64,000 bases of DNA from the NCBI GenBank assembly GCA_965208065.1, contig OZ242313.1, positions 619,396 to 683,395 on the forward strand. Reading direction: 5' to 3'. Source of the DNA: Spirochaetia bacterium. Lineage in GTDB: Bacteria > Spirochaetota > Spirochaetia > SZUA-6 > Bin103. Below, one piece after another: positions 963-43,867 of this stretch. Each line of letters opens with the position of its first letter. Position 1 is the stretch's first letter. The notes below the pieces were generated by a model. That model searched no databases and had not been told where the DNA came from. It worked only from the letters and a program-made list of their open reading frames with translations. Position numbers and translations under genes: made by a program.

Positions 963-2069
963 TTAACTGCTCTGCATCGGCATGACGATGTGGAAGAAGT
1001 CACCCTCCGGTTCGGGCCGCAGCGACAGGGCCTTGCCGCTGTCGGTGAACTCCAGCGCGACCTGGTCGGTGGTCATCTCGCGCAACGGATCCAGGAGGTA
1101 CTCGAAGTTGAACGCCAGCACGATCTCCGGGCCTTCGTACTCGCACGCCACCTCCTCGCGCGCCGCGCCAATCTCCCCCTCGCTCGACCGGATCACCAGA
1201 CTGTCACTGTGGCTCTCCAGGTAGATGCGGCGCGACTTCTGCTCCACGAGCAGCGAAACCCGCCGCAACCCTTCCTCGAACGCGCCGCGATCGATCAGTA
1301 ACCGCTGCTCCTGACGCTCGGGAATCACCCGCTGGTAGTTGGGAAACTGCGCTTCGATCAGGTTGGACGACAGGTGCTGGGAATCGAACGCCACGTGGAA
1401 ACTGCGCTCGCTCACCGCCATGCGCAACTCGCCCTCGCGCGGCGCCTGGCGGCGCACCACGTTCAACACCTTGGGGGGTATGATCACCCCCTTGAAATCG
1501 GCCAGGTCACCGTCGATCGCCTTCGACGCGTAGGCCAGCCGGCGTCCATCGGTGGCTACCATGATCATCTGGCTGCCCTGCTTCTCCAGGAATACCCCGT
1601 TCATGAAATACCGGGTCTCGTCGTCGGACACCGCGAACAGGGTGTGGGAAATCATCTCGATCAGGTCCTGCTTGCCAAATGCAAACGCCTGCTCTTCGGC
1701 GTCGCTCTGAAACGGCGGGTACTTGTCCGCCGCTATGCCCTTGAGCTGGAAGCGGATGTTCTTGAACACCGGACTGATGCGCAGCACAGTGTCCTCCGAT
1801 AGTTCGAGTTCCACTTCGCCGTCGGGCAAGGAACGGAGAATGCCGTGCAGCTTGTCGCAGAATACCGTCACGCTGCCCGGCTGCATGACCTCCACTGGTA
1901 TCGTCGACTCGTAATTGACCTTCAGATCGGTGGCTCGGATGGTCAATGTCCCGTCACCGGCCTCAAGCAGCACGTTGGACAGAATCGACAGCGAGTTTCG
2001 CACCGAGATAATCTCGTAGGCATTCGCGATCTCGTGCAGGATGGCTTCGCGTTCGCAGGTGAACTTCAT
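963..2069 (-). CDS. dnaN: DNA polymerase III beta sliding clamp. The start is called at the internal MKFTCEREAIL, because the 21-aa N-terminal extension in the ORF track is unlikely.
   Basis: Full-length beta-clamp sequence (MKFTCEREAILHEIANAYEIIS...LRISPVFKNIRFQLKGIAADKYPP...), lying between dnaA and recF. Confidence 0.9.
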   Translation of the reverse strand: MKFTCEREAILHEIANAYEIISVRNSLSILSNVLLEAGDGTLTIRATDLKVNYESTIPVEVMQPGSVTVFCDKLHGILRSLPDGEVELELSEDTVLRISPVFKNIRFQLKGIAADKYPPFQSDAEEQAFAFGKQDLIEMISHTLFAVSDDETRYFMNGVFLEKQGSQMIMVATDGRRLAYASKAIDGDLADFKGVIIPPKVLNVVRRQAPREGELRMAVSERSFHVAFDSQHLSSNLIEAQFPNYQRVIPERQEQRLLIDRGAFEEGLRRVSLLVEQKSRRIYLESHSDSLVIRSSEGEIGAAREEVACEYEGPEIVLAFNFEYLLDPLREMTTDQVALEFTDSGKALSLRPEPEGDFFHIVMPMQSS

Positions 2070-2199
2070 GGTCTCATTCCCTTTTACTAGATGATTGGTG
2101 GTAATGGTAGTAGTTGCCGAGGATATGTGCAAAAACAGTATAACCTATTGGAGCGATTCATTTTAACAGTCCACCGCGGCGGTTGGGGATGGCCCCCGG

Positions 2200-2280
2200 T
2201 TATCCACATTATACCCGGCTCGGGCGCGGGTGGGCCGATTGTTCACGGCCGATGCAGAGCCCGTGCACAGGTTATCCAGA
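2200..2280. promoter_or_regulatory. DnaA boxes in the dnaA-dnaN intergenic region: a perfect TTATCCACA at 2200-2208 and TTATCCAGA at 2272-2280.
   Basis: The 9-mers were read directly from the sequence. An AT-richer stretch lies at about 2083-2170. The dnaA-dnaN intergenic region is a known oriC or dnaN-promoter location in several phyla. Confidence 0.5.
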
Positions 2281-2314
2281 CCGCACCACGCCGCCATGTC
2301 GCGAGCGGGAACGC

Positions 2315-3700
2315 TCAGGCCACGCTCTTCTGGCGCAGGGAGTTGATGATTTTGTGCAGGGTCGGCTCGAGGGTGGCGTCGGTCTTGATCCGCTCGGTGA
2401 TGCGCTGGCACGCGTGCATGACCGTGGTGTGGTCGCGGCCGCCGAATTCGAGGCCCACCTCGGTGGTCGAGCTGTTGGTGAGGGATCGCGCTACGTACAT
2501 TGCCACCTGGCGGGGGAAGGCAATCGCCTTGGTGCGCTTCTTGCCCTTCAGGTCGGCCGGCGTGAGCGAGAAGTAATCGGCCACGGCGCGTTGGATGCCG
2601 TCGATGGTAATGCTCAGGTGCTCCGGTTTGGCGAAAAACTCCTGCAGCTCCCGTTGGGCGATCGGCGGCGTGATGGTGCGCTGCATCAGTTCGGTGTAGG
2701 CCGCGAGCTTGGTGAGCGCCTTCTCCAGGTCGCGGACGTTGGAGCGGATGTTGCGGCAGATCAGTTCGACGATGCCGTGCTCGAGGGACAGGCCGCGTTC
2801 TTCGATCTTGCGGGTGACGATGGCGATGCGCGTCTCGTAGGTGGGTGGTTGCAGGTCGACGTTCAGGCCGCGCTCGAAGCGGTTGATGAGACGGTCGGGC
2901 AGGTTCATCAACTCCGATACCGGGCGGTCGCTGCTGAACACCATTTGCTTGTTGGCATCGTACAGTGCGTTGAAGGTGTGGAACAGTTCCTGTTGGGTCT
3001 CCACTTTGCCCTGCAGGAACTGGATGTCGTCGATCAGCAGCACGTCGGCCGACCGGTAGCGGTTCTTGAAGCGGTGCCCGGTCTTCTCCTTGATCGACTG
3101 GATGAATTCGTTGGTAAAGGTCTCGACGGTGACGTACACCACCTTGAGGTCGGGGAGTCCGGCGTGTACGGAGTTGCCGATTGCCTGCAGGAGGTGGGTC
3201 TTGCCGAGGCCCACCCCACCGTATACCAGGCACGGGTTGTAGGCCCGGCCCGGGTTCTTGGCGATGGCGATGGCCGCGTTGAGCGCGAACGAGTTGCTCT
3301 CGCCTTCGATCAGCCGTTCGAACGTGTAATCCGGGTTGAGCTGGCTGTGCCGGCGCGGCGGCTCGACGATCCAGGGCGCCGCCGCGGCCGGTGTTGCCGC
3401 GGGCCATGGCGCGGGCACCGCCGCGTCCGGCTCCGGCTGCGCCACGTTACGAATTACGTAGGCAAGCTTGAGGCGGCGGGCCGAGAGCTCGAACAGGGTC
3501 TGCTCGAGCGCCGACTGGAAGCGCTGCGCTACCTGGTCGCGGTAGAAGGCGGATGGTACACCGAGTTCAATGATTCCTTCCTGTGAACCATGATAAGTCA
3601 TGTTGGTAAACCAGGTGTCATATTCCTGGCTGGTGATGGTGCCGCGAAACTGCGTGCGCGCCTCGTTCCAGAATGCCTCGTAATCCCAGTTATCAACCAT
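2315..3700 (-). CDS. dnaA: Chromosomal replication initiator DnaA. The start is called at MVDNWDYEAFWNEARTQ; the ORF extension up to 3868 is probably untranslated.
   Basis: AAA+ Walker A motif GGVGLGKTHLLQAIGN and a C-terminal domain IV (...VARSLTNSSTTEVGLEFGGRDHTTVMHACQRI...). Confidence 0.9.
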   Translation of the reverse strand: MVDNWDYEAFWNEARTQFRGTITSQEYDTWFTNMTYHGSQEGIIELGVPSAFYRDQVAQRFQSALEQTLFELSARRLKLAYVIRNVAQPEPDAAVPAPWPAATPAAAAPWIVEPPRRHSQLNPDYTFERLIEGESNSFALNAAIAIAKNPGRAYNPCLVYGGVGLGKTHLLQAIGNSVHAGLPDLKVVYVTVETFTNEFIQSIKEKTGHRFKNRYRSADVLLIDDIQFLQGKVETQQELFHTFNALYDANKQMVFSSDRPVSELMNLPDRLINRFERGLNVDLQPPTYETRIAIVTRKIEERGLSLEHGIVELICRNIRSNVRDLEKALTKLAAYTELMQRTITPPIAQRELQEFFAKPEHLSITIDGIQRAVADYFSLTPADLKGKKRTKAIAFPRQVAMYVARSLTNSSTTEVGLEFGGRDHTTVMHACQRITERIKTDATLEPTLHKIINSLRQKSVA

Positions 3701-4102
3701 TATTTCCCCTATCCGACACGGAGCCAAAAACCCCCGCAAAACCCGCCCGAAAGCGACTATCCAAACATTTTGTACACAAGTTATACACAGGACCCTGGAA
3801 CAGCGCTGCGAGACAAGAAGATGCCCGCCGAGGCGGAGTCTGAACCGTTTCCAGATTCTGACGTGCATTCTGAGAATGTTCTAATTATATTCATAGTAAT
3901 ATGTTGATAAAATCCAACCGATATTCTGGTGTGCAACTTGAGATGCCCGGGAGGAACCCGGAAGTACCGCAATTGCTTGCGTCTGGGGAACCTATCGGAT
4001 GTCCACAAGTTATTCACAAGCCGCCCACCAAGTATTCGATAGTATCATCCCGAAGCCGTAGCGGCAAGTCACGGTACACGATAATCTGAACGCGGAATAC
4101 GT
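3701..4102. promoter_or_regulatory. Candidate oriC / dnaA promoter region, with several DnaA-box-like 9-mers and an AT-rich DUE-like stretch.
   Basis: TTATACACA at 3781-3789. TGTTGATAA at 3902-3910 (reverse complement TTATCAACA). TGTCCACAA at 4000-4008. TTATTCACA at 4010-4018. The only strongly AT-rich segment in the first 30 kb lies at about 3868-3925 (gaatgttctaattatattcatagtaatatgttgataaaatcc). Confidence 0.45.
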
Positions 4103-10316: not shown

Positions 10317-10401
10317 GCTGCGGTGGTGGAATTGGTAGACACGCTAGCTTGAGGGGCTAGTGGGCGTTTAGCCCGTGAAGGTTCAAGTCCTTTCCGCAGC
10401 A
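10317..10401 (+). tRNA. tRNA-Leu (anticodon GAG), 85 nt with a long variable arm.
   Basis: Acceptor stem GCTGCGG/CCGCAGC (7 bp), D-arm GTGGAATTGGTAGAC, anticodon stem-loop CTAGC-TTGAGGG-GCTAG, long variable arm, T-arm GGTTCAAGTCC. Confidence 0.85.
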
Positions 10402-32561: not shown

Positions 32562-34190
32562 GTGGCGGTGAGCCAGCCCGGCAGACCCCCTGCCCTGCGC
32601 GCCGGTGAGGTGGGTCGCGCTGGGAGCACTGAAGCAGCCGCCATTGAACAGGGTGCGTTGCCGGAGCCGCGCGCGCGGCGCTCGCCGTGGCCGGGCGCAG
32701 TCGCGGTCGTGGCCGACGATCTCACCGGTGCAATGGACGGCGGCGTGCAGCTTCTGCCGCGAACCGCCGTGGAGGTGCTGATAAGCGCCGGCGGCGTGGT
32801 CCCCTTCGCCGCCATGGCCGGCCGCGGTCAGAGATCGGCGCGCGTGCAGACGCCGCCCGCGGGCGGCGATTCGGGGGTATGCCGGCCAGAGGATGCGCCC
32901 CCGGCGGTAGACACTCCTGCACGCATCGCGCAAGCGGCGGATGCGTCGGTGTTGCCGGTGATCAACACGCAGTCGCGTGGCATGCCGCCGGAGGAGGCGT
33001 CCGCGCGCTTTAGTGCGCTATGCCGGGACGTGTCCGCGGCGGGCCGCACGGTGTGGTTCAAGAAGATCGACTCGACGCTGCGCGGCAACGTCGGCGCCGA
33101 GTTGGCGGCCCTGCACGAGGCGCTGGCGCCGTGCGTGATCGTGTGCACGCCGGCGCTGCCGGAAGAGGGGCGCACCGTGCGGGGGGGCGCGCTGCTGGTG
33201 GCCGGCGAGCCGGTCATGGCAACGCCCTACCGCGACGAGATTCCCACCACGCACGGCGCTGCCGCCAGCTCCGCGGTGATAGACATCGTGCGCCGCCAGT
33301 GGCCGGGGTGCCGCGCCGCCCATCTGCCCGCGCGCCCGAGCCGTAGCGAGATCGCCGCCGCGGCGCACGGACGGGTCGACCTGGTCGTGGCCGATGCCGC
33401 CAGCGACGGCGACCTGCATGCGCTCGCAGCGGCAGCGGAAGGGGCCGTTCGCGGGGGCCGCCGGCTGGTGTGGGCGGGGGCCGCCGGCCTGTTGCGCGCG
33501 CTGACGCTGGCCGGCGCGCCCGGGGTCGCCGCCGCGCCGCGCGTGGAGAGCGGCTATCCCGTTGGTAGCCCGGACCCTGCTCCCCCGGCGCCGCTGGTAC
33601 TGGTCTGTGGATCGCGCCGCAGCCTGTCCCACAGGCAGATGGATTTTGCCGCCGCCGCCGCTCGCCCGCTGCTGGTGCGCGCGAGCGCAGCCTCCGGCGC
33701 CGCGGCAAGCAAACGCTGGCACGTCTCCGGCGGCGCGGAAGATGGTGCACCGGGCCCACTGAGCGCCGTGGATGCAGCCGCGCTGTCCGCCAAGGCGCTG
33801 GCCGCCGGCCGGGATCTCTTTCTGTGCGCACCCTCGCTCGCGGAATCCGCCGCCCGGCCATCCGTCCCCGTGGCGGAGACGGTGGCGGCGGATCTTGCCG
33901 ATCTGGCCGCGCGCGCACTGGCGTCGGCGGGCATGCTCCCGCGCGCGCTGCTGCTGGTGGGCGGCGACACCGCCTACGCCTGCCTGCGGCGGCTGGCCAT
34001 TCACCGCCTCGAGCTGTGCGGCGAAGTGGAGCCCTACGTTCCGTGGGGCCGCGTGCTCGGTGGGGCGTGGGACGGCATGGTGCTGGTCACCAAGGCCGGC
34101 GGCTTCGGCGATCCCCACACCCTGCGCCGCGTATGCGGATTCCGCCCCGTTGCCTCACCGCCGGTGCGCGCAGTACGCTCCACGCCATGA
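32562..34190 (+). CDS. Four-carbon acid-sugar kinase family protein (DUF1537/DUF1357, OtnK-like).
   Basis: N-terminal VADDLTGAMDGG signature (ADDxTGA) and a C-terminal nucleotide-binding region. The real start may be the GTG at about 32709. Confidence 0.7.
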   Translation: MAVSQPGRPPALRAGEVGRAGSTEAAAIEQGALPEPRARRSPWPGAVAVVADDLTGAMDGGVQLLPRTAVEVLISAGGVVPFAAMAGRGQRSARVQTPPAGGDSGVCRPEDAPPAVDTPARIAQAADASVLPVINTQSRGMPPEEASARFSALCRDVSAAGRTVWFKKIDSTLRGNVGAELAALHEALAPCVIVCTPALPEEGRTVRGGALLVAGEPVMATPYRDEIPTTHGAAASSAVIDIVRRQWPGCRAAHLPARPSRSEIAAAAHGRVDLVVADAASDGDLHALAAAAEGAVRGGRRLVWAGAAGLLRALTLAGAPGVAAAPRVESGYPVGSPDPAPPAPLVLVCGSRRSLSHRQMDFAAAAARPLLVRASAASGAAASKRWHVSGGAEDGAPGPLSAVDAAALSAKALAAGRDLFLCAPSLAESAARPSVPVAETVAADLADLAARALASAGMLPRALLLVGGDTAYACLRRLAIHRLELCGEVEPYVPWGRVLGGAWDGMVLVTKAGGFGDPHTLRRVCGFRPVASPPVRAVRSTP

Positions 34191-34303
34191 GCGAGCGGGC
34201 AGGTTCGTGAGGCGGCGGAGGCGCGCGACGCCGAGCACGCGGCAGCCGCCGGCCGTGCGAATACGGCCGCCGCGTTGCGCGAGTTCGCCGACCCGCAAGG
34301 AGC

Positions 34304-34561
34304 ATGTCATCAATGAATGATTCAGCCCAACCGACACTACGAGATGTCCTCACCGAGCTGCGCGAAATCCGCGCCGAACTCGCTGCGATGCGTACCGAAC
34401 TCGGCTCCCGCCTGGACGGAATCTGCGACGAAATCCGCGCCATCCTGGAGGAGTTCGCCACCAACCTGCGTGCCGACCTCGCCGCCCGGCTGGACGGGGT
34501 AGGCAGCCAAGCCGAGCAAGCGCGCGCCGCCCTGCGCATCGTCGAGGACGACGAGACCTAG
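34304..34561 (+). CDS. Small coiled-coil hypothetical protein (85 aa).
   Basis: AAGGAG RBS. Heptad-like repeats (ELREIRAELAAMRTEL...IRAILEEFATNLRADLAARL). A better-spaced ATG lies at 34313. Confidence 0.35.
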   Translation: MSSMNDSAQPTLRDVLTELREIRAELAAMRTELGSRLDGICDEIRAILEEFATNLRADLAARLDGVGSQAEQARAALRIVEDDET

Positions 34562-34692
34562 CCGCGCGCCTCGGCTCTACATCGCGCCAGCGGACGGCGG
34601 CAAGCAACTTCCCGTTCCAACGGATCGCGCCTCCAGCCGACCGCGCTGCAGGCCGGACGTGTCGGCTACGTGAACGCCAGGTAGACCCGGGA

Positions 34693-35958
34693 TCAGAAGA
34701 CCGCGGCGGTGGGGAGATCGGACAGCAGGGTCTCCGGGAAGTGCAGGTAGGTGACCTGCTGCCAGCGGTGCGGGATGAACATGTGGATGGTGCCGCGGTC
34801 GACGAACAGGTCCATGTAGGAACACTGGTGATTCCGGAACGGCGTGTCGAACGAGGGCTCGAGCGCATTCGCCAGCAGGAAGCGGGGCTCGGACCAGGAG
34901 CGGCCGCCGTCGCCGGACAGGGCGACCCAGAGTTCGGAGCGGTCGGCCATCAGTTCCGGCTTGGTGCCGTCGAGGCCGGTGTAGTCGAGGTCGTGATGCC
35001 GGTTGTGGTGGAACGCGGCCAAGGTGGCGCCGTCGGACAGCATGAACAGCATCGGCGGGGCATCCGGGTGGACCAGCGGCGTGGGTTCGGGATAGCTCCA
35101 GGTTCTGCCGTCGTCCATGCTGCGGGCCTGCCACAGGTGGCCCTCGGGTGAGCGTGCCATCAGCAGCACCTCGCCGCCGCCGAGGTCGATGGGGCGGCCT
35201 TCGTCCAGCCTCCCGAACCCGCTCGCGAACCAGCCGCCGCCGCGCGCCCCGGGCAGCAGTTGCCAACTCGCACCCTCATCATCGCTGCGCAGCACGTACT
35301 GGCGGGTCTGCAGTGGCCGGTGGCTCCAGTCCGCCTCGTGGGAGCCGATCAGCCAGCTCCCGGCCTCGGTCTCGCACATGCGCATCACCGACATGCCGGT
35401 AAAGCCCGGATCGTTGCCTGGCTCGATAAGCCGCACGCCGCTCCAGGTGTGGCCGTCGTCATCCGACCACCGGTAGCCGATCGGCGCGTTTTCGCGCAGC
35501 CCCTGGTCGCGGCGGTAGCGGTCCCAGATTGGCTGCGTCCCGAACGCGTAGAGGCGGCTGCCGGTGCGCGGGATGAACGGCACGAAGCCGTGCTGGTTGT
35601 AGTCGATGTCGAACGCGATGCGGGGGCCGTGCCAGCTCTCCCCGCCGTCCGAAGAACGGAACGCCACCAGGTCGTTCACCTTGCGCTCCGCGCGCCCGTA
35701 GTGGCAGTGTCCCTCGGCCGGGTCGTGGCCGTCGCTGTCGGTCGGGAACATCAGCAGGTAGTCGCCGCCCGGCGTGACCGTGGCACGGGTCTCGAACAGC
35801 GACCCCGGCGCCCGGTAGATCACCTGCCCCCGCACCCCGGGCACCGACAGCAGCCCAACCTCTTCCAGCACCTGCAGACCGCCAGGAGGCGAATTCATGT
35901 CGACCCGGACTCCATGAACGGCCACCTGCTCAGCCAGCGGCAGCGGTTGATACCTCAT
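34693..35958 (-). CDS. BNR/Asp-box repeat beta-propeller protein, exo-alpha-sialidase-like (GH33-like). No signal peptide.
   Basis: Five Asp-box repeats: SSDGGESW, SDDDGHTW, SDDEGASW, SMDDGRTW, SGDGGRSW. Confidence 0.7.
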   Translation of the reverse strand: MRYQPLPLAEQVAVHGVRVDMNSPPGGLQVLEEVGLLSVPGVRGQVIYRAPGSLFETRATVTPGGDYLLMFPTDSDGHDPAEGHCHYGRAERKVNDLVAFRSSDGGESWHGPRIAFDIDYNQHGFVPFIPRTGSRLYAFGTQPIWDRYRRDQGLRENAPIGYRWSDDDGHTWSGVRLIEPGNDPGFTGMSVMRMCETEAGSWLIGSHEADWSHRPLQTRQYVLRSDDEGASWQLLPGARGGGWFASGFGRLDEGRPIDLGGGEVLLMARSPEGHLWQARSMDDGRTWSYPEPTPLVHPDAPPMLFMLSDGATLAAFHHNRHHDLDYTGLDGTKPELMADRSELWVALSGDGGRSWSEPRFLLANALEPSFDTPFRNHQCSYMDLFVDRGTIHMFIPHRWQQVTYLHFPETLLSDLPTAAVF

Positions 35959-36061
35959 CGCGCGCGGCCGACCCTACCACCGCCGCCCGAACCCACTCAA
36001 CCTGCAACAACCTGCCACCCGGCGTGCTGGTCAGCGGCACCATCCAGGTTATACTGCCCGT

Positions 36062-36133
36062 ATGAAGACGGCGGTGTCGCTGCCCGACGATCTGTTTCAA
36101 GCCGCGGACGTCGAACTCAGGTGGGCGCGATGA
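36062..36133 (+). pseudogene. 23-codon fragment resembling the N-terminus of an RHH/CopG-type antitoxin (MKTAVSLPDDLFQAAD...). It terminates in an ATGA overlap with brnA-like.
   Basis: Read directly. It is too short to be a functional RHH protein. It lies at the left edge of the low-GC island. Confidence 0.25.
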
Positions 36134-36336
36134 GAGACAACTACGACTTCTCCAAGGCGAAACGAAATCCCTACGCGAAGCAGCTCAAGAGACAGGTCAC
36201 GATACGGCTGGACCTGGACACGCTGGAGTATTTCAAGGCACTGGCAGCCGACAGCCGCATCCCCTACCAGACGCTGATCAATCTCTACCTTCGGGAGTGC
36301 GCCACAGCTGAAAAAATGGGCTGCGCTGAGAGATAG
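36130..36336 (+). CDS. BrnA-like RHH antitoxin/regulator (COG3514-type); no cognate BrnT toxin gene is adjacent.
   Basis: MRDNYDFSKAKRNPYAKQLKRQVTIRLDLDTLEYFKALAADSRIPYQTLINLYLRE matches BrnA-family antitoxins. Confidence 0.6.
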   Translation: MRDNYDFSKAKRNPYAKQLKRQVTIRLDLDTLEYFKALAADSRIPYQTLINLYLRECATAEKMGCAER

Positions 36337-36410
36337 CCCCATGGAAGATAAGAAATGCTTTCTTACCCCCATCGCGCGCCTACCTTGTAGCGGGTGCGCG
36401 TAAATCCGAG

Positions 36411-37403
36411 TTGGACCCTGCCATGCCGACGCGCGCCCCTCGAAATCGGACGATCTCATGCACAGAGGCGGAACGGGAACAACTCGTACGCCGCGTCATG
36501 CGGCTCGATAGCCCGGTCTCGTGCCGTGAGGTCGCAGGGCGGGTTGTCGGCGGCGACATCTTCTCCGTCGCCTGGCACCTCCCCTTCTCGTTTGTCGACC
36601 TGCTGGTCCTCGATCCTCCATACAACATCACCAAGCACTTCGGTGGCAGCACCTTCAGGAAGAAGCCGGCAGACGAATACCGGCGCTGGTTCCAGGCCCT
36701 CATCGATCTGTTGCTGCCGCTGATGAAGCCGGACGCTACGCTGTACGTGTGCTCGGACTGGAGCACTTCAACCGTGATCTTTCCCGTTTTGGAGGCGTCC
36801 TTCCGGGTACGGAACCGAATCACCTGGGAACGTGACAAGGGGCGCGGCGCGAAGCGGAACTGGAAGAACAATACCGAAGACATTTGGTTCTGTACGCGGT
36901 CGGACGACTTCTACTTCGATGTCGATGCCGTCAAGCTGAGGCGCAAGGTGCTGGCGCCCTACCGCAACAACGGGAAGCCGAAGGACTGGTCGGAGGACCA
37001 GGATGGCAGATTTCGCCTGACCCACCCGTCCAACATCTGGACCGACATTACCGTGCCGTTCTGGTCGATGCACGAGAACACCGAACACCCGACCCAGAAG
37101 CCCGAGAAACTGATGGCAAAGCTGATCCTGGCCAGCTCGAAGCCGGGTGACTGGGTGTTTGATCCGTTTCTCGGCAGTGGCACCACCGCGGTCGTCGCGG
37201 AAAAGCTGTCACGCCGCTGGTGCGGAGTCGAGATCGATGCCGACTACCAGTGCCTGGCGCTCAAGCGCCTCGCCGCCGCCCGGACCGATTCGTCGATCCA
37301 GGGCTACGCTGAAGGCGTGTTCTGGGACCGCAACACACACCCGGTCCGCACCCCGCCGGGCGGAACCGACACCGGCCACGCCCAAACCGAGTTGTTCTCA
37401 TGA
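36411..37403 (+). CDS. Type II DNA methyltransferase, beta-class amino-MTase (N6-adenine or N4-cytosine).
   Basis: Motif IV DPPYN precedes motif I FDPFLGSGTT (beta-class order). HPTQKP is present. Confidence 0.8.
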   Translation: MDPAMPTRAPRNRTISCTEAEREQLVRRVMRLDSPVSCREVAGRVVGGDIFSVAWHLPFSFVDLLVLDPPYNITKHFGGSTFRKKPADEYRRWFQALIDLLLPLMKPDATLYVCSDWSTSTVIFPVLEASFRVRNRITWERDKGRGAKRNWKNNTEDIWFCTRSDDFYFDVDAVKLRRKVLAPYRNNGKPKDWSEDQDGRFRLTHPSNIWTDITVPFWSMHENTEHPTQKPEKLMAKLILASSKPGDWVFDPFLGSGTTAVVAEKLSRRWCGVEIDADYQCLALKRLAAARTDSSIQGYAEGVFWDRNTHPVRTPPGGTDTGHAQTELFS

Positions 37404-38068
37404 GGGCGCGGTTCTACTACGACGGTTACCATCATGCGGTGGCAACGAGTATCAAAGCGCACCTGAATTCGATTCCTGATTTCCTGACGACGGAGACTGC
37501 GAATAGTCCGAGAGCGGTGGGTGACGCGCTCGAATCGATAGTCGCGGAACGATTCAACACGTTCCTCGGCGACTGGTGCTCCGAGTACTCAAGCGATTTT
37601 GCGCGTCGCGCAATGGCCGACCTTGCGTTCACTGATCGAGACGGCATCTACACCGTCGTGGACGTGAAGACGCACAGGGAAGACACACGATTCAATATGC
37701 CCAACCTCACGTCGGTGGAGCGGCTGACTCGATTCTACGAGTCCGACTTCAACGTGTTTGCGCTTCTGCTCATCAGGTACTCGATTCAGGGTACGTCCCT
37801 TACGGCGTCCGGCGTCACCCTGGTGCCGATTGAGTTTCTGGACTGGGACTGCCTCACAGTAGGGGCGCTGGGCTGGGGCCAGATCCAGATTGCCAACGCC
37901 AACCAGGTCCACGTCCGGGATCGATACTCGCGAAAACAATGGATGTTGCAGCTCTGCGACGCGATGATGGAGTTCTACCCTCGCGAAATCGACAAGATTC
38001 GCAACAGAATGAACCGCTTCGCAAATGTGAGGGCAGACTGGGAATCGAGACAGGACGTCTGGAAATGA
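37400..38068 (+). CDS. Putative restriction endonuclease (PD-(D/E)xK-like), partner of the adjacent MTase.
   Basis: ATGA overlap with the MTase stop. Candidate PD-(D/E)xK core FTDRDGIYTVVDVKTH. No other similarity recognised. Confidence 0.45.
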   Translation: MRARFYYDGYHHAVATSIKAHLNSIPDFLTTETANSPRAVGDALESIVAERFNTFLGDWCSEYSSDFARRAMADLAFTDRDGIYTVVDVKTHREDTRFNMPNLTSVERLTRFYESDFNVFALLLIRYSIQGTSLTASGVTLVPIEFLDWDCLTVGALGWGQIQIANANQVHVRDRYSRKQWMLQLCDAMMEFYPREIDKIRNRMNRFANVRADWESRQDVWK

Positions 38069-38324
38069 AAGATACACCACTGCTTGCATTCGCCACGTTC
38101 CTCCTCGGCGCACTGCGTGGCAGAGGATCGGCGACTCTTGCCTGCGGCCATCTCTAGATCCGAATCTCACGGGCCGCGATTCCGTCTCGTTGATTCAGGG
38201 TGGGCCGTTGAACTCCCTGACGGCGTGCGGGTGGGCCCCAAGCAGGCTGCGGATTATCTGCCCGTTCATAGAGTATATTGTGCGGGCTGGTTGAAAGACC
38301 AGTGAAATTTGAGCTGAGGGTTCA

Positions 38325-39416
38325 ATGCGTACTGAAGTTTTGTTCTCGCAACGCAACTGGATACTTAAGAACGAGTCTCCGTCTGACAAGATGCCAACAG
38401 AGATCACCGAGTATGACGTGTATTCCGATGCTCGGTTTACGGGACAAGTAGACCTTCCTGACTGTCCGTATGCTTTTCTTAATGCGCTGTCATCTGAGTC
38501 AGGGACGGTGGACACCAGAATGGTTCTCAGGATTGAGAGTTATGACGATTCTCACGTTTCGCCATCTATTGACTGGTCAAAGACCGACGATGCGACGTAT
38601 CATGGGGGGTGGTACGATGATGAGATAATCTCGCTTGCGTCGCTCATTCTTGGCGTTAGGTTGGCGTCTGGTGGCATCTCCCGGCGCTGGTCCCGACCTG
38701 CTGACGATCGTTATGGACAACCAAACCGTCTCGCAATGAAACCTAAGCTGCCGTTTGTCATCAAGGGTGGCGGTATCCTTCCGGATGTGACAGGAGAACA
38801 TTCGATGATGAACTTGGAGCATTTTGGTTCGATTCTACAAATCGAGCCCAGTCGGTTTGTTTCACTTGTTCGGGCATGTAGTCTCTATCGCAATGCTTTG
38901 TGGATGGTGGAGTTGGACACGAATCTTGCATGGTTGCTATTTGTGTCGGCATTGGAGACTGGCGCAAGAGACGTATGCGGTTCGGGAAGCGTCACTGAGT
39001 CTTTTTCTAAGTTTGTGATTCAATTCCGACCATCCCCGCCGAAGCAGCGCCCGGATGCCGGCACACTACAGTTTGAGTGGACTAAGGAGAACTTCAAGCG
39101 GATGTTGAAGTTGGTATACGATTACCGCTCACGAGCATTGCATGATGGGAAGCCATTTCCCCCGCCTATGTTGAGTCGTCCTTGGCAACACGGTCACGGC
39201 GCTCCGCCTAACGAGGTTCCCGGTCCAGGGCTTGCAGTTTCTACGATGGGCGGTACTTGGCGCAAAGAGGAATTGCCGATCAATCTCCATACGTTTCATT
39301 ACATAACGAGACACGTATTATTGGAATGGTGGGCCCGTGAGTTGTCTATTTCGCAGGAACGCGAGGTGCCGTATAGTGCCACTAAGGGCCGACGCAATAC
39401 AAGACCCTATAGATAG
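38325..39416 (+). CDS. Hypothetical protein, 363 aa, in the lowest-GC part of the island; unknown function, possibly defence-related.
   Basis: Clean ORF in AT-richer DNA with a distinct codon usage. No motif I can assign. Confidence 0.5.
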   Translation: MRTEVLFSQRNWILKNESPSDKMPTEITEYDVYSDARFTGQVDLPDCPYAFLNALSSESGTVDTRMVLRIESYDDSHVSPSIDWSKTDDATYHGGWYDDEIISLASLILGVRLASGGISRRWSRPADDRYGQPNRLAMKPKLPFVIKGGGILPDVTGEHSMMNLEHFGSILQIEPSRFVSLVRACSLYRNALWMVELDTNLAWLLFVSALETGARDVCGSGSVTESFSKFVIQFRPSPPKQRPDAGTLQFEWTKENFKRMLKLVYDYRSRALHDGKPFPPPMLSRPWQHGHGAPPNEVPGPGLAVSTMGGTWRKEELPINLHTFHYITRHVLLEWWARELSISQEREVPYSATKGRRNTRPYR

Positions 39417-39436
39417 ACGCAATCAAGCCGTTACCG

Positions 39437-39751
39437 TTAGCAGCATGGAGGCTTTGTGATGGCTGTTCGTGGCGTGCATGATGGGTACCGCTCGCCCATT
39501 GTGGCACTATTATGATTATGAGACCTCCCCTGTACTCCACCGCCGCGCTCGTCGACCTGTTTCGCCAGCACACCGTCGGCAGTGATGACGTAGGTAGCGC
39601 GGGCAAGCCTCTCAATAAGCCCGCCCGCAACCAAGTGAGTGAGCGGGTAGCCTGGCATCCGGTTTACACCCATCCGGGCAAGGATTTCTTGCCGCGCCAT
39701 CGGCCTACGATCGGAAAGGGCTTCCAGTATGCCCCATCGTGCTTCCGTCAT
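39437..39751 (-). CDS. Small winged-helix DNA-binding protein (putative transcriptional regulator).
   Basis: MTEARWGILEALSDRRPMARQEILARMGVNRMPGYPLTHLVAGGLIERLARATYVITADG looks like a wHTH. The C-terminal 35 aa are probably read-through. Confidence 0.35.
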   Translation of the reverse strand: MTEARWGILEALSDRRPMARQEILARMGVNRMPGYPLTHLVAGGLIERLARATYVITADGVLAKQVDERGGGVQGRSHNHNSATMGERYPSCTPRTAITKPPCC

Positions 39752-39981
39752 GTACATCGTTTCTTCGCTTCGGGCTGGGCCCTCGGGGTGGTTGGTTCGT
39801 TGGTTCTAACTTGCCGGTGCCCCTCGTCCATCTGTGCAATCTGAGCCATGGTGTCGATCGCTTCCTTTACTTTGGGGCTATGCAGCAGTTCGGCGGGGTC
39901 GACGTATAGGCCGCCAGTATAGGTTACGTGCACCCTGGGTTTGGACCGCTCGCGTGACGAGGGGTTGCGCGATCGTGCCAC
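39748..39981 (-). CDS. Small hypothetical ORF (77 aa) overlapping the wHTH gene start.
   Basis: ORF only. Same strand as, and a 10-nt overlap with, the wHTH gene. Confidence 0.2.
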   Translation of the reverse strand: MARSRNPSSRERSKPRVHVTYTGGLYVDPAELLHSPKVKEAIDTMAQIAQMDEGHRQVRTNEPTTPRAQPEAKKRCT

Positions 39982-40189
39982 AGACGAACCTCCTTGCTAC
40001 CCGACCAACTTATCATACGCGAGGCACCGCGCAACGACCCGGTTGATCGGTGGTTGGAGGGTTGGCAAGGAGTATACGTCCTGCCGGGAAGGGTTTGCGT
40101 CCAACCGCGAGTGACAGGAATCCATAGCGGGACGTTGCTAACCTGATTGACGCCGCCATTGGCTGTTGTTCGGCACGGTGTGGCAGGGC

Positions 40190-40300
40190 ACGGTGCGTGA
40201 GGTGGGCGTGGCGGGCGGGCGGGGGCGGGCGGTGCGGGCGGGTGCGGGCGGTGTGCGGGGTAGACAGGGGGTGGCGAGTGCGGGTAGGGTGGCGCGGCGC
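40190..40300 (+). repeat. G-tract-rich low-complexity region (GGGCGG/GGGTG repeats), a potential G-quadruplex-forming sequence directly upstream of the HMG-CoA synthase start.
   Basis: ggtgggcgtggcgggcgggcgggggcgggcggtgcgggcgggtgcgggcggtgtgcggggtagacagggggtggcgagtgcgggtagggtgg, read directly. Confidence 0.5.
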
Positions 40301-40302
40301 TG

Positions 40303-41580
40303 ATGGAGAGGTCCTTCGGGATCGGCGACATCGCCGTTTATATCCCCCATCTACAGATTTCGCTCGATACGCTGATCGCACGGCACCGTGAACGCAACCC
40401 GCAGTGGGCCCGGACCCTGGCGCGGGCGCGGCGGCGCACGGGACAGGAGTCGCTGCGCTTCCCGGAGCCGTGGGAGGATGCCGCCACGATGGCGGCGCAG
40501 GCGGCGGCCGCACTGCTGGAACGGATGAGCGAGGCCGAGATCGGCTCGCTGCGCTACCTGGTGGTGGGTACGGAGTCCGGCGTCGACCAGGCCAAACCGG
40601 TGGCGGCGCACGTGCAGGGCATGTTGCAGCGCGCCGGGTTCGCGCTGTCGGGGGCGCTGTCCACGTTCGACATTCAGCACGCTTGCGCCGGCGGGGCGAT
40701 TGGTCTGGCGAGCGTGGGGGCGATGCTGCAGGTGAGCCGCGGCGAGGCCGGGCGCGGGCTGATAATCTGCACCGACGAGGCGCGCTACGCTGCGGGCAGC
40801 AGCGCCGAGATTACCCAGGGCGCGGCTGCGGTGGCGCTGCTGGTGGAGCCGGAGCCGCGCCTGCTGGAGATCGACTTCGCGGCGATCGGTTATGCGTCGC
40901 GCGACGTGGACGACTTCTTCCGCCCGCACGGCTCGGTGGCGGCGCGCGTCAGGGGGCGGTTCTCCATCGATTGCTACCAGCGTGCGGTGGAGGAGGCGCT
41001 GCTCGACCTGGGTGCCCGCACCGGGCGCAGCATGGCGGCGCTGCTGGAGGAGGCCGACCTGTTCGCACTGCACGTGCCGTTCCGCTCGCTGCCGGAGGAG
41101 TCGATGGCGGGCCTGGTGCAGCGCCACCTGGACCTTGATGCGGCCGCGGCGGCGCGGTTTCTGGCCGGGCGGCAATTCGCGGACGGTACCGCCCCCGCCG
41201 CGGTGGTGGGCAACGTGTACTCGGGGGCGCTGTTTCTGAGCGCGGCGGCGCTGCTGGCGGCGCGCCACCGCGAGTGCCGGTCGGCGCTGGCCGGCCAGCG
41301 CGCGGTGCTGGTGGCGTACGGCTCCGGCAACACCGCGCTGGCGTTCTCGGCGCGGGTCGGCGGCAAGGCCGGCGCGGTGCTGGAACGCTGGTCGTTCGAT
41401 GCCCTGATCGACCAGGGGGTGGAGGCGCCGCTGACCGCGTACGATGCCTGGATTGCCGACTATCCTGGCCGGCGCGGCGCCGAACCGGCCCCGGGGCAGG
41501 TTCCGGTGGGCCGCTTCTACCTGCACGGGATTCGCGACGACGGCTATCGCACCTACCGGCACGCAGGATCCGCCGGGTGA
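40303..41580 (+). CDS. mvaS: Hydroxymethylglutaryl-CoA synthase.
   Basis: VVGTESGVDQAKPVAAHV, active-site FDIQHACAGGAIGL, EITQGAAAVALLVEPEPRLL, DVDDFFRP, FALHVPF. These are collinear with bacterial HMGS. Confidence 0.85.
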   Translation: MERSFGIGDIAVYIPHLQISLDTLIARHRERNPQWARTLARARRRTGQESLRFPEPWEDAATMAAQAAAALLERMSEAEIGSLRYLVVGTESGVDQAKPVAAHVQGMLQRAGFALSGALSTFDIQHACAGGAIGLASVGAMLQVSRGEAGRGLIICTDEARYAAGSSAEITQGAAAVALLVEPEPRLLEIDFAAIGYASRDVDDFFRPHGSVAARVRGRFSIDCYQRAVEEALLDLGARTGRSMAALLEEADLFALHVPFRSLPEESMAGLVQRHLDLDAAAAARFLAGRQFADGTAPAAVVGNVYSGALFLSAAALLAARHRECRSALAGQRAVLVAYGSGNTALAFSARVGGKAGAVLERWSFDALIDQGVEAPLTAYDAWIADYPGRRGAEPAPGQVPVGRFYLHGIRDDGYRTYRHAGSAG

Positions 41581-42698
41581 GCTGGAACGAGCCGGCGGCG
41601 GCTGCGGCCGAAATCAGTACCCGCAAGGAGCACCATCTCGACATCTGCCTCGATGACGAGCGCTATCCCGACCCGGCGGCCGGCGGCACCAGCCTCGACC
41701 AGGTGCGGCTGGTGCACCGCGCGCTGCCGGAACTCGACTACAACGCCATCGACACCGCGCAGCCGTTCCTGCGCGCGCGGCTGCGGCTGCCGCTGCTGAT
41801 TTCCTGCATGACCGGCGGCTCGGGGCGCGGGCGCAGCGCCAACCGCGCACTGGCGGAGGCGGCGCAGCGCGCCGGCGTCGCCGTCGGGGTGGGGTCGATC
41901 CGCCCGCTGCTGCGCGATCCCGACACCTTTGCCGACTTCCACGTCAAGCCGCACGCGCCCGACGTGCCGGTGCTCGCCAACCTGGGCGCGGTGCAGCTCC
42001 GCGACCTCGGCGCCGCCGCGCTGCGGCCGCTGCTGGAGCGGCTGGAGGTACAGGGGCTGGTAATCCACCTGAACGCCGGCCAGGAGCTGTTTCAGCCCGG
42101 CGGCGACCGCGATTTCCGCGGCCTGCTGGAGGCGATTGCCGGCGCCGTGGCGGGCTGCGGGGTGCCGGTGCTGGTCAAGGAGACCGGATTCGGCATCGGC
42201 CCGGCGGAGATCCGGCGGCTGCTCGGCTACGGGGTGCGCTACGTGGACGTGGCCGGCTCGGGCGGCACCAACTGGATCGCGGTGGAGGGGGAGCGGCTGG
42301 CCGCGCCGGAGCGGCAGAGCGCGCGTGCGTTCGCTGACTGGGGGTTGCCGACCGGGGTGCTGCTGGCGGCGCTCGGCGGAGCCGAGGCGGGCCGCGTGAT
42401 CGCTTCCGGCGGCTTGCGCAACGGCGTGCACCTGGCCAAGGCGCTGGCCCTGGGCGCCGGGCTCGGCGCCATGGCGTTGCCGTTCATCCGCGCCGTGATG
42501 GCTGGCGGCAGCGAGGGCGCGCTGGCCCTGATCGGGCGTACGGAACATGAGCTGCGCACCGCCATGACGCTGTGCGGCGCCCCGACGCTGGCCGCCCTGC
42601 GCGGGGCGCCGGTGATGCAGTCGGCTTCTTTCCGCCACCAGGTCACCGAACTGCGCCGGGCCGCCCTGCCGAAGTCGGCCTCCGCGGCCGAGGAGTAA
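41577..42698 (+). CDS. fni: Isopentenyl-diphosphate delta-isomerase type 2 (FMN-dependent).
   Basis: N-terminal TRKEHHLDIC (RKxxHL), TIM-barrel FMN-binding motifs (VKETGFGI, ASGGLRNG). The GTG start overlaps the mvaS stop (GTGA). Confidence 0.85.
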   Translation: MSWNEPAAAAAEISTRKEHHLDICLDDERYPDPAAGGTSLDQVRLVHRALPELDYNAIDTAQPFLRARLRLPLLISCMTGGSGRGRSANRALAEAAQRAGVAVGVGSIRPLLRDPDTFADFHVKPHAPDVPVLANLGAVQLRDLGAAALRPLLERLEVQGLVIHLNAGQELFQPGGDRDFRGLLEAIAGAVAGCGVPVLVKETGFGIGPAEIRRLLGYGVRYVDVAGSGGTNWIAVEGERLAAPERQSARAFADWGLPTGVLLAALGGAEAGRVIASGGLRNGVHLAKALALGAGLGAMALPFIRAVMAGGSEGALALIGRTEHELRTAMTLCGAPTLAALRGAPVMQSASFRHQVTELRRAALPKSASAAEE

Positions 42699-42703
42699 CA
42701 GGC

Positions 42704-43867
42704 ATGGCTGAGTTGGAACTTCGCTACGGCGCCAACCCGCACCAGGCCGGCGCCCGCGTCACGGCGTCCGGGGCTCTGCCGTTCACGGTGCTCGGCGGAG
42801 CGCCCGGCTATATCAACTTCCTTGATGCGCTGAACTCGTGGCAACTGGTGCGCGAGGCGCGCGGAGCCACCGGCCTGCCGGCGGCGACCTCGTTCAAGCA
42901 CGTCAGCCCGGCGGGGGCGGCGCTCGGGCTGCCGCTGACCGATGCCGAGCGGCGGGTGTTCGCGGCCGGGACCGGCGAGCTGTCGGCCACCGCAGCCGCC
43001 TACGCGCGCGCCCGCGGCGCCGACCGCATGAGCTCCTACGGCGACTGGGTGGCGGTGAGCGACCAGGTGGACCTGGCCACCGCGCGGCTGCTGAAGCGGG
43101 AAACATCGGACGGCATCATTGCCCCCGGCTACGACGCCGACGCGCTGGACGTGCTGCGCGCCAAGAAGGGCGGCGCCTACCGGGTGCTGGCGATCGATCC
43201 CGACTACCGGTCGCCCGCTACCGAGCGGCGCCAAGTGTTCGGGGTGACCCTGGAACAGCCCCGCAACGACACCGTCATCGACGGCGAGCTGCTGACCAAC
43301 GTCCCCACGGCGGCGCGCGACATCCCGCCGGCGGCGGCGCGTGACATGCTGCTGGCGCTGATCGCCCTGAAGTACACCCAGTCCAACTCGGTGTGCATCG
43401 CGTATCGCGGCCAGACCATCGGTATCGGCGCGGGCCAGCAGTCGCGCATCCATTGCACCGCGCTCGCCGCCGACAAGGCGTGCGCCTGGTACCTGCGTTT
43501 TCACCCGGTGCTGCAGGAGGTGCGTTTCCGCCCCGGGGTGCGCCGCCACGACCGCGACACCTGGATGACCCAATACGTGGGCGGGGTGCAGGTCACCGAC
43601 GATGCCTGGCTGCGCGCGCAGGTGGAGGAGATGCCGCCGCCGCTGACCGCGAAACAGCGCGCCGACTGGCTGGCCGGGCTGGACGGTGCCGTGCTGGCCT
43701 CGGATGGGTTCTTTCCGCATCGGGACAGCATCGACGTGGCACGGCGCTGCGGCGTGCGATACATTGTGCAGCCGGGCGGGTCGCTGCGCGACGGCGACGT
43801 GATCGAAGCGTGCGACGAGCACGGGCTGGCGATGGTGATGACCGGCTTGCGCCTGTTCCATCACTGA
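42704..43867 (+). CDS. Stand-alone AICAR transformylase-domain protein (PurH C-terminal domain-like; no MGS-like IMP cyclohydrolase domain).
   Basis: ELRYGANPHQ, SFKHVSPAGAA (catalytic K-H), QPGGSLRD. The protein is 387 aa, so only the AICARFT domain is present. Confidence 0.7.
   Translation: MAELELRYGANPHQAGARVTASGALPFTVLGGAPGYINFLDALNSWQLVREARGATGLPAATSFKHVSPAGAALGLPLTDAERRVFAAGTGELSATAAAYARARGADRMSSYGDWVAVSDQVDLATARLLKRETSDGIIAPGYDADALDVLRAKKGGAYRVLAIDPDYRSPATERRQVFGVTLEQPRNDTVIDGELLTNVPTAARDIPPAAARDMLLALIALKYTQSNSVCIAYRGQTIGIGAGQQSRIHCTALAADKACAWYLRFHPVLQEVRFRPGVRRHDRDTWMTQYVGGVQVTDDAWLRAQVEEMPPPLTAKQRADWLAGLDGAVLASDGFFPHRDSIDVARRCGVRYIVQPGGSLRDGDVIEACDEHGLAMVMTGLRLFHH

Follow-up and report, generated by a model that had tools for sequence, protein, structure and literature searches.

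The DNA considered here is a 64-kb window (64,000 nucleotides (nt) of contig OZ242313.1) from a high-GC Spirochaetia genome. It raises a simple question: what is carried by the block of unusually low GC content that sits directly upstream of the operon for the mevalonate pathway (HMG-CoA synthase / IDI-2), and what does the 363-amino-acid (aa) protein encoded in that block do? The first-pass annotation described the block as a horizontally acquired, low-GC defence islet and singled out the 363-aa gene as its most interesting element, and our analysis supports both views. We consider it rather probable that the region is a mosaic defence islet of about 4 kb, made of two independent immunity modules together with decayed or regulatory small genes. 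The first module would be a type II restriction-modification (R-M) system and the second a single-gene HEPN effector.

The composition of the region sets it apart from its surroundings. Calculated in 1-kb windows, the GC content averages 0.699 (standard deviation 0.038) outside the island and is 0.570 across positions 36062–39981, with a minimum of 0.51 at 38251–39250, over the 363-aa gene. The sharp GC drop described earlier is therefore borne out by windowed GC, and also by the GC content of third codon positions (GC3). Host genes have GC3 values of 0.83–0.90. Within the island, the values are 0.82 for the DNA methyltransferase (MTase), 0.73 for the restriction endonuclease (REase) and 0.75 for a BrnA-like gene, as against 0.53 for the 363-aa gene, 0.61 for a winged helix-turn-helix (wHTH)-like gene and 0.65 for a 77-aa open reading frame (ORF), orf77. 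Since these GC3 layers (three in number) differ among the genes, the island is compositionally a mosaic of at least two acquisitions. Each ORF reported by the first-pass annotation is present in the sequence, and its coordinates have been corrected. Its remark that the island lacks an integrase, transposase or transfer RNA (tRNA) gene also stands: no integrase or transposase ORF was found within 34000–43000, and the sole tRNA gene of the window lies at 10317, 26 kb from the island.

A HEPN-like domain in the 363-aa protein

The 363-aa gene (38325–39416, + strand) belongs to a large family. The protein has 114 close homologues, and a profile search found 1,894 representatives (50% clustering) at E<=1e-3, including 861 at E<=1e-30; nearly all of the representatives are 370–400 aa long. 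The family ranges from Spirochaetia and Myxococcota to plasmids of Actinobacteria and Alphaproteobacteria and to enterobacterial P2-like phages. Neither Pfam nor PADLOC gave a match for 62 family members, and neither NCBIfam nor PHROGs gave one for the window's own protein. Searches of PDB sequences with this protein, singly and as a profile, returned nothing useful. In particular, no Pfam family at E<=1 was common to the 62 members (profile-profile comparison with HEPN families was not made), and the profile produced no HEPN match at E<=10 among PDB sequences.

In the AlphaFold (AF2) model (predicted local distance difference test, pLDDT, 92; predicted template modelling score, pTM, 0.90), a beta-rich N-terminal domain (residues 1–160; 38325–38804, +) is followed by a helical C-terminal domain (residues ~161–346) and a disordered tail (together 38805–39416, +). 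Four residues of the helical domain, R268, S269, H273 and E211, are invariant in an alignment of 62 sequences. The first three belong to an R-x4-H motif, R268-S-R-A-L-H273, which is encoded at 39126–39143, lies at the C-terminal end of helix 254–274 (helix 3) and is present in 298 of 317 members (94%). E211 lies within helix 199–218 (helix 2), in a SALE motif. An insert, about 35 aa longer in most homologues, separates helices 2 and 3, and helix 321–346 closes the bundle, giving the four-helix up-and-down arrangement of a HEPN core. In the description of HEPN domains by Anantharaman et al. (PMC3710099), helix 3 ends in the R-x4-6-H motif, whose arginine is followed by a polar residue; an acidic position is conserved in helix 2, and insertions often separate helices 2 and 3. 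Because the model agrees with each of these features, we assign the C-terminal domain to HEPN as a structure-based prediction. The protein had previously been described as having no recognisable motifs, a description overtaken by the invariant R-x4-H motif in this HEPN-like helical domain.

The structural hits of the model comprise 4nqf, the HepT-type toxins 8xdj, 7ae2 and 5yep, HI0074, the HEPN domain of sacsin, AbiV and Csm6, and the remaining hits are HEPN proteins too. A Foldseek search of the PDB with the model gave no match at E<1, and the evidence for HEPN is therefore topological rather than close. Together with the lack of a sequence-profile link to HEPN and the presence of housekeeping genes among some metagenome neighbours, this result is what favours a protein that is not a nuclease, that is, a non-catalytic HEPN-like domain or an unrelated four-helix bundle with a regulatory or housekeeping role. 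We regard such a role as very unlikely. R268, S269, H273 and E211 are invariant at just the positions expected of a catalytic HEPN domain, the distribution of the family is patchy (for example, 5 of 5,426 complete E. coli genomes), and its members are carried by plasmids and phages as well as by defence islands, with no conserved synteny.

The N-terminal domain has no confident structural relative. Its conserved residues are Y49, N53, YHGG at 92–95, E100, R112, R120 and G131, and we propose that it could act as a sensor or regulatory domain.

Because of the analogy with ApeA, DARNA/PD-T7-3, AbiV and other single-protein HEPN effectors, we read the 363-aa protein as a putative stand-alone ribonuclease (RNase) of the abortive-infection type. 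Its fold, motif, family breadth, genomic contexts and lack of a partner gene are observations, and from these we infer activity, trigger, target and phenotype. Dimerisation of the HEPN domains would create a composite RNase site that needs no metal and stays inactive as long as the cell is healthy. An infection cue would be detected by the N-terminal domain, or in a pocket that it forms with the HEPN domain, and the activated RNase would then cleave tRNA or other cellular RNA and thereby abort the infection. Whether the whole family amounts to a new and widespread single-gene abortive-infection system, in which a novel beta-rich N-terminal domain recognizes a phage-derived cue and switches on the HEPN RNase, is in our judgement an evenly balanced question.

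Known HEPN effectors share parts of this design. ApeA is reportedly a single-gene HEPN anti-phage system (Gao et al. 2020). It likewise has a HEPN domain at its C terminus together with an orphan N-terminal region, lacks a partner gene and occurs in defence islands. On the other hand, ApeA is much longer (its catalytic arginine is R502) and mainly helical, with a Mid domain, whereas the N-terminal domain here is beta-rich, and none of the 62 members matched the Pfam Apea-like HEPN model or the PADLOC models. ApeA starts to cleave tRNA anticodons when a ligand binds in a pocket to which its N-terminal domain contributes (10.64898/2026.01.26.701840). DARNA/PD-T7-3 has the reverse domain order to the 363-aa protein, with an N-terminal HEPN domain followed by an all-helical C-terminal domain of ~300 aa that binds single-stranded DNA (10.64898/2026.02.22.705581). 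HepS, PD-T4-2 and AbiV are, like DARNA/PD-T7-3, single-protein HEPN defence effectors, yet the 363-aa family matches no PADLOC model. AbiV, moreover, usually lacks the histidine of the R-x4-6-H motif (PMC3710099), while the 363-aa family keeps both R and H invariant. We considered membership of the ApeA, DARNA, PrrC-like, AbiE and type III toxin-antitoxin (TA) systems for the island genes and rejected each of them.

A single-gene cassette in many genomic contexts

Comparison of the 363-aa gene with a homologue of 85% identity from the unrelated locus L004 delimits the unit that is conserved. About 55–70 nt upstream of the ATG are shared by the two loci, and the DNA further upstream is not. The shared segment, a predicted promoter and 5' untranslated region (UTR) of the HEPN cassette (38271–38324, +), holds a TATATT box, a hairpin (CTGGTTGAAAGACCAG, 38287–38302) and a GAGGG ribosome-binding site; a promoter/terminator scan gave nothing above shuffled expectation. 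All-against-all BLASTP of the neighbouring genes across ~80 loci found no recurring neighbour family. Taken together, the lack of a recurring neighbour and the confinement of conservation to this short upstream segment mark the gene as a stand-alone, one-gene cassette with a predicted promoter/5' UTR of its own.

These results bear directly on a second explanation, in which the 363-aa protein would be the toxin of an addiction module that stabilizes the island instead of protecting against phage, with the wHTH gene and orf77, or an unseen RNA, as the antitoxin. Many HEPN proteins are indeed toxins of TA systems (PMC3710099), small genes flank the 363-aa gene, and TA remnants (the BrnA-like gene and a ribbon-helix-helix (RHH) fragment) lie in the same island. 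However, the wHTH gene, orf77 and BrnA are absent from all homologue loci examined, which also leaves the earlier idea of the wHTH gene and orf77 as a pair associated with the 363-aa gene unsupported. Moreover, no tandem repeats of the kind expected of a type III antitoxin RNA occur upstream, in 38069–38324, and the conserved cassette consists of the ORF plus its ~55–70 upstream nt. An addiction module is thus an unlikely explanation. A type III TA system with an AbiF-like HEPN toxin was likewise rejected, given the lack of upstream tandem repeats and the short conserved segment.

The genomic company of the family is varied but often defensive. Defence or mobile genes lie within 8 kb of the family member in seven of eight long-contig contexts, a Sorangium locus being the exception. 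The seven contexts are the type II R-M pair of the window; a DUF1156 MTase with SNF2/PLD and helicase genes; integrase/AlpA, RES and DruA genes; the inside of a type I R-M locus; PglZ and Fic-like fragments; ThsB_TIR, SLFN, Fic and MTase genes; and transposases with SNF2/PLD genes. The neighbours at metagenome loci are heterogeneous by Pfam and PADLOC, some being R-M, helicase or conjugation genes, with N6_Mtase, Mrr_cat and DpnII-MboI among these.

SNF2/PLD and Helicase_C genes adjoin two members of different relatedness to the window's protein, one 71% identical to it (L001, 1565–7727) and one 41% identical (L187, 9310–12412). The former locus also has a DUF1156 methylase, and a related helicase-type ORF is found three genes upstream in L097 (2437–5901). 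Either chance or a recurring link with DISARM-like modules might lie behind this adjacency.

Family members also travel on phages and plasmids. Ten viral contigs carry them, as do seven plasmids, which come from Actinobacteria and Alphaproteobacteria. One P2-like prophage has its member in the interval that separates tail-fibre assembly from tail sheath genes. QKE55509.1 (annotated 'hypothetical protein'; L186, MT374855.1, 19460–20581), a copy 99.7% identical to one family member, is located directly upstream of gpFI in vB_YpM_22, a cultured Peduovirus that infects Yersinia, and in related phages. The same gene is present in the five complete E. coli genomes mentioned above (H16–H20). We take this tail-gene slot to be the Z/fun locus of P2, going by the P2 gene order H-G-Z/fun-FI. 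Z/fun sits between genes for tail-related proteins and holds defence cargo (10.1101/2024.10.15.618418; PMC13586616).

The proximity of R-M genes invites a third explanation, in which the HEPN protein would be a guardian coupled to restriction, as PrrC is to EcoprrI, silenced by the R-M proteins and released when a phage inhibits the R-M system. The 363-aa gene begins 256 nt downstream of the R-M pair, one homologue sits inside a type I R-M locus, others abut DUF1156-MTase/SNF2-PLD/helicase genes, and the N6_Mtase, Mrr_cat and DpnII-MboI families noted above recur in this argument as metagenome neighbours. HEPN domains do associate with R-M systems, and in PrrC-EcoprrI and DUF4145 a HEPN RNase gene lies beside or inside the R-M locus as a possible second line of defence, which is the same siting as here (PMC3710099). 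Yet the 363-aa protein lacks an ABC-ATPase domain and a DUF4145 match, and its association with R-M genes is not obligatory: no neighbour family is conserved across the ~80 loci, the type of R-M partner varies by locus, and members stand alone in P2-like phages, with no R-M genes nearby. In the window itself, the GC3 of 0.53, compared with 0.73–0.82 for the R-M genes, and the gene's own conserved promoter/5' UTR point to a separate acquisition. We therefore think coupling to the R-M pair improbable, and prefer to treat the HEPN cassette as an immunity module in its own right.

The restriction-modification pair and the small genes

The other module of the islet is a routine one. The first-pass annotation had paired the MTase with the 222-aa ORF downstream as a type II R-M system, and this pairing withstands closer analysis. 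The MTase gene (36423–37403, +) is open from a TTG at 36411 (36411–37403), but its probable start is the ATG at 36423, because the resulting 326 aa agrees with the length of homologues (321–326 aa). The protein matches Pfam N6_N4_Mtase (1.8e-42) and PADLOC MTase_II (3.1e-56). DPPY (motif IV) at residue 68 precedes FLGSG (motif I) at residue 253, counted from the TTG at 36411, which is the motif order of the beta class. The nearest NCBIfam models are adenine-specific, the match to PRK11524 (adenine-specific MTase; 8.7e-40) falling under the equivalog cut-off, and the enzyme is probably specific for N6-adenine (m6A). Its gene overlaps that of the REase (37400–38068, +) by 4 bp (ATGA), as checked in the sequence, and a pair of N6_N4_Mtase and 222-aa genes with an equal 4-bp overlap is kept in two other loci, L091 and L092.

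The REase had been suspected to be a PD-(D/E)xK nuclease, and the model agrees: it displays the nuclease fold with the catalytic residues, and the fold resembles those of EcoRV, HincII, SwaI and NlaIV, even though the sequence identity to the solved enzymes is only 7–16%. No Pfam or NCBIfam model was matched, PADLOC REase_II gave only E 0.036, a search of PDB sequences gave nothing useful, and tblastn against plasmids found no match. The family nevertheless numbers more than 4,254 clusters, without a name in the databases searched. SwaI, EcoRV and HincII all cut bluntly and resemble one another in structure (PMC5415892), and the REase of the window is accordingly a predicted blunt cutter of type IIP. 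Fold and pairing are observations, and together they identify the two genes as a bona fide type IIP R-M system. Its beta-class MTase is translationally coupled to an endonuclease of the EcoRV/HincII/SwaI class, which presumably cuts unmethylated incoming DNA, bluntly, at a palindrome.

Several points weigh against the reading of the islet as two immunity modules. In the REase model, residues 65–81, which include D74, are of low confidence. In a scan of 60 kb of host sequence for under-represented palindromes, CAGCTG was observed 11 times against 28.9 expected and CTCGAG 15 times against 32.2, counts that assign no specificity to the R-M system. As for the HEPN cassette, the sensor role of the N-terminal domain is a proposal only, and the functional readings for every member of the family are predictions. 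In addition, defence or mobile genes form a minority of the 149 immediate neighbours at the metagenome loci, several neighbours are housekeeping genes, and no matched control was scored.

The small genes of the islet (the orphan BrnA-like gene, the RHH fragment, the wHTH gene and orf77) are, in our reading, bystanders of the kind that such islands typically hold, either remnants of TA systems or small regulators. The BrnA-like gene (36130–36336, +) encodes a 68-aa RHH/CopG-type orphan antitoxin that passes the Pfam threshold for BrnA_antitoxin (PF14384; E 1.3e-10, 41.9 bits, cut-off 26.1) and also matches CopG_antitoxin (7.8e-07). Yet it is far under the cut-off of the NCBIfam BrnA equivalog (16.7 bits, cut-off 60), and no BrnT gene adjoins it. 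The 171 nt between the start of the flanking BNR gene (35958) and the BrnA-like ATG (36130) instead hold a fragment of 23 codons (MKTAVSLPDDLFQAAD; 36062–36133, +) that resembles the N terminus of an RHH antitoxin, and the stop codon of the fragment overlaps the BrnA-like ATG (ATGA). This fragment had been suggested to be the disrupted target gene of the insertion, a suggestion that finds no support, given the fragment's ATGA coupling to the BrnA-like gene and the lack of a full-length relative in every related locus examined. The BrnA-like gene and the fragment are best read as a TA remnant.

The BrnA-like gene had also been put forward as a possible controller, or C protein, for the R-M pair. 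It is co-oriented with the MTase gene, ending 75–86 nt upstream of it, and RHH proteins bind DNA as repressors. However, the homologous MTase-REase pairs in L091 and L092 lack a BrnA-like gene upstream (C-box operators were not searched for); transporter genes end 59–103 nt upstream of their MTase genes. The known C proteins are of the Xre-type HTH, and RHH proteins are not known among them. The scores of the BrnA-like protein as a BrnA/CopG antitoxin, and the coupling of its gene to an antitoxin fragment, also argue for a TA remnant, and a controller role seems highly improbable to us.

Convergent with the HEPN gene lies the small winged-helix-like gene (39437–39757, −; 106 aa), in which conservation is confined to the first ~70 residues. 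All of its family matches are sub-threshold: AbiEi_4 at 0.014 (15.9 bits, cut-off 25), MarR_2 at 0.037 and PADLOC AbiEi at 0.03–0.04. Identification as AbiEi or MarR was rejected on these grounds, and the island has no nucleotidyltransferase (AbiEii) gene that would complete an AbiE pair. Only four homologues of this protein were found in 5.8 billion proteins. orf77 (39748–39981, −) overlaps the start of the wHTH gene by 10 nt and has no family match. It is probably a real gene, because a 72%-identical copy (53 aa) is found in the island of L006, a related genome, at the same site; it recurs nowhere else.

Two further observations concern the surroundings of the wHTH gene and its homologues. 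Across the point where the HEPN and wHTH genes converge at their 3' ends lies a 17-nt inverted repeat (39373–39389 / 39494–39510), whose arms are 88% complementary and separated by 104 nt. In L173 (890–4338) and L174 (6433–9176), wHTH homologues are convergent with a conserved pair of genes for proteins of 572 aa and 577 aa, both without a Pfam match. This pair lies near type I R-M genes, in L173 beside YgjP/SprT-like and HsdR genes, and is a candidate for another defence pair.

A variable slot upstream of the mevalonate operon

Where the islet is inserted can be examined in two related Spirochaetia metagenome-assembled genomes, L005 and L006, whose HMG-CoA synthase (HMGS) genes encode proteins 89% and 82% identical to that of the window, respectively. 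The DNA upstream of HMGS is dissimilar in the three genomes. L006 (1–9844) has an island of at least 10 kb, of lower GC, in this position. It starts with a copy of the window's MTase gene (81% identity). Of the REase gene that comes next, no more than the initial 18 codons are left, and these are followed by an Eco57I-like type IIG gene, a DUF6338 gene, the orf77 homologue and a gene for a 1216-aa HTH+AAA_16 (STAND-like) protein. The difference between L006 and the window is a case of cassette replacement within a common island scaffold. In L005, peptide-transporter genes, a DDE transposase and an SLFN_AlbA_2 fusion are found instead. About 330 nt upstream of HMGS are common to the window and L006, whereas L005 matches only the ~55 nt before the HMGS start. 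This junction was the one result kept from tblastx comparisons of the island with related loci, which were swamped by high-GC noise, and it was then aligned directly. The distance from a 542-aa gene (32562–34190 in the window) to HMGS is 6.1 kb here and ~1.2–3.4 kb in more distant relatives.

Given that the DNA upstream of HMGS differs across relatives, the slot is a variable, cassette-swapping hotspot, a pattern that can be explained without an integrase. Direct or inverted repeats that might bracket the island as att sites were sought, and only short matches at chance level were found.

Other features of the slot and the window were recorded alongside. At 40191–40253, 50–110 nt upstream of the HMGS start codon, the DNA consists of G-rich tandem repeats, (GGGC)n / GGGCGG; this tract is longer in the window than in L005 and L006, the two closest relatives, and might be a promoter-region or G-quadruplex-type element. 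On its other side, the island is flanked by a BNR_2 (sialidase-like) gene (34693–35958, −). An equivalent of 421 aa in L091 (7213–8478), together with an aminotransferase gene, adjoins the MTase-REase pair of that locus. In L085 (8959–10050), a 363-aa BNR-like gene (with faint Pfam matches only) and an aminotransferase gene adjoin a type I R-M system and a homologue of the 363-aa HEPN family. The combination of BNR and aminotransferase genes beside defence cargo may mark a clade-wide hotspot in Spirochaetia. At the start of the window, dnaN (963–2132, −) and dnaA (2315–3868, −) show that it begins at the chromosomal replication-origin region, the island lying ~32 kb from dnaA. These two genes account for a second GC dip (0.57–0.60 at 1250–4000), the only one in the window besides the island.

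For the families involved, the islet has two consequences. Through the R-M pair, a very large endonuclease family, of more than 4,254 clusters and unnamed in the databases searched, gains a fold and a predicted function. The 363-aa family is sizeable and goes unrecognized by Pfam, NCBIfam, PADLOC v2 and PHROGs, yet it bears the hallmarks of HEPN RNases, and the homologue found in E. coli and Peduovirus makes it directly testable in E. coli. If our reading is true, the family would be a new immune sensor-effector made of a single protein, its sensing domain would be novel, and the description of the family would fill a gap in the tools now used to annotate bacterial defence.

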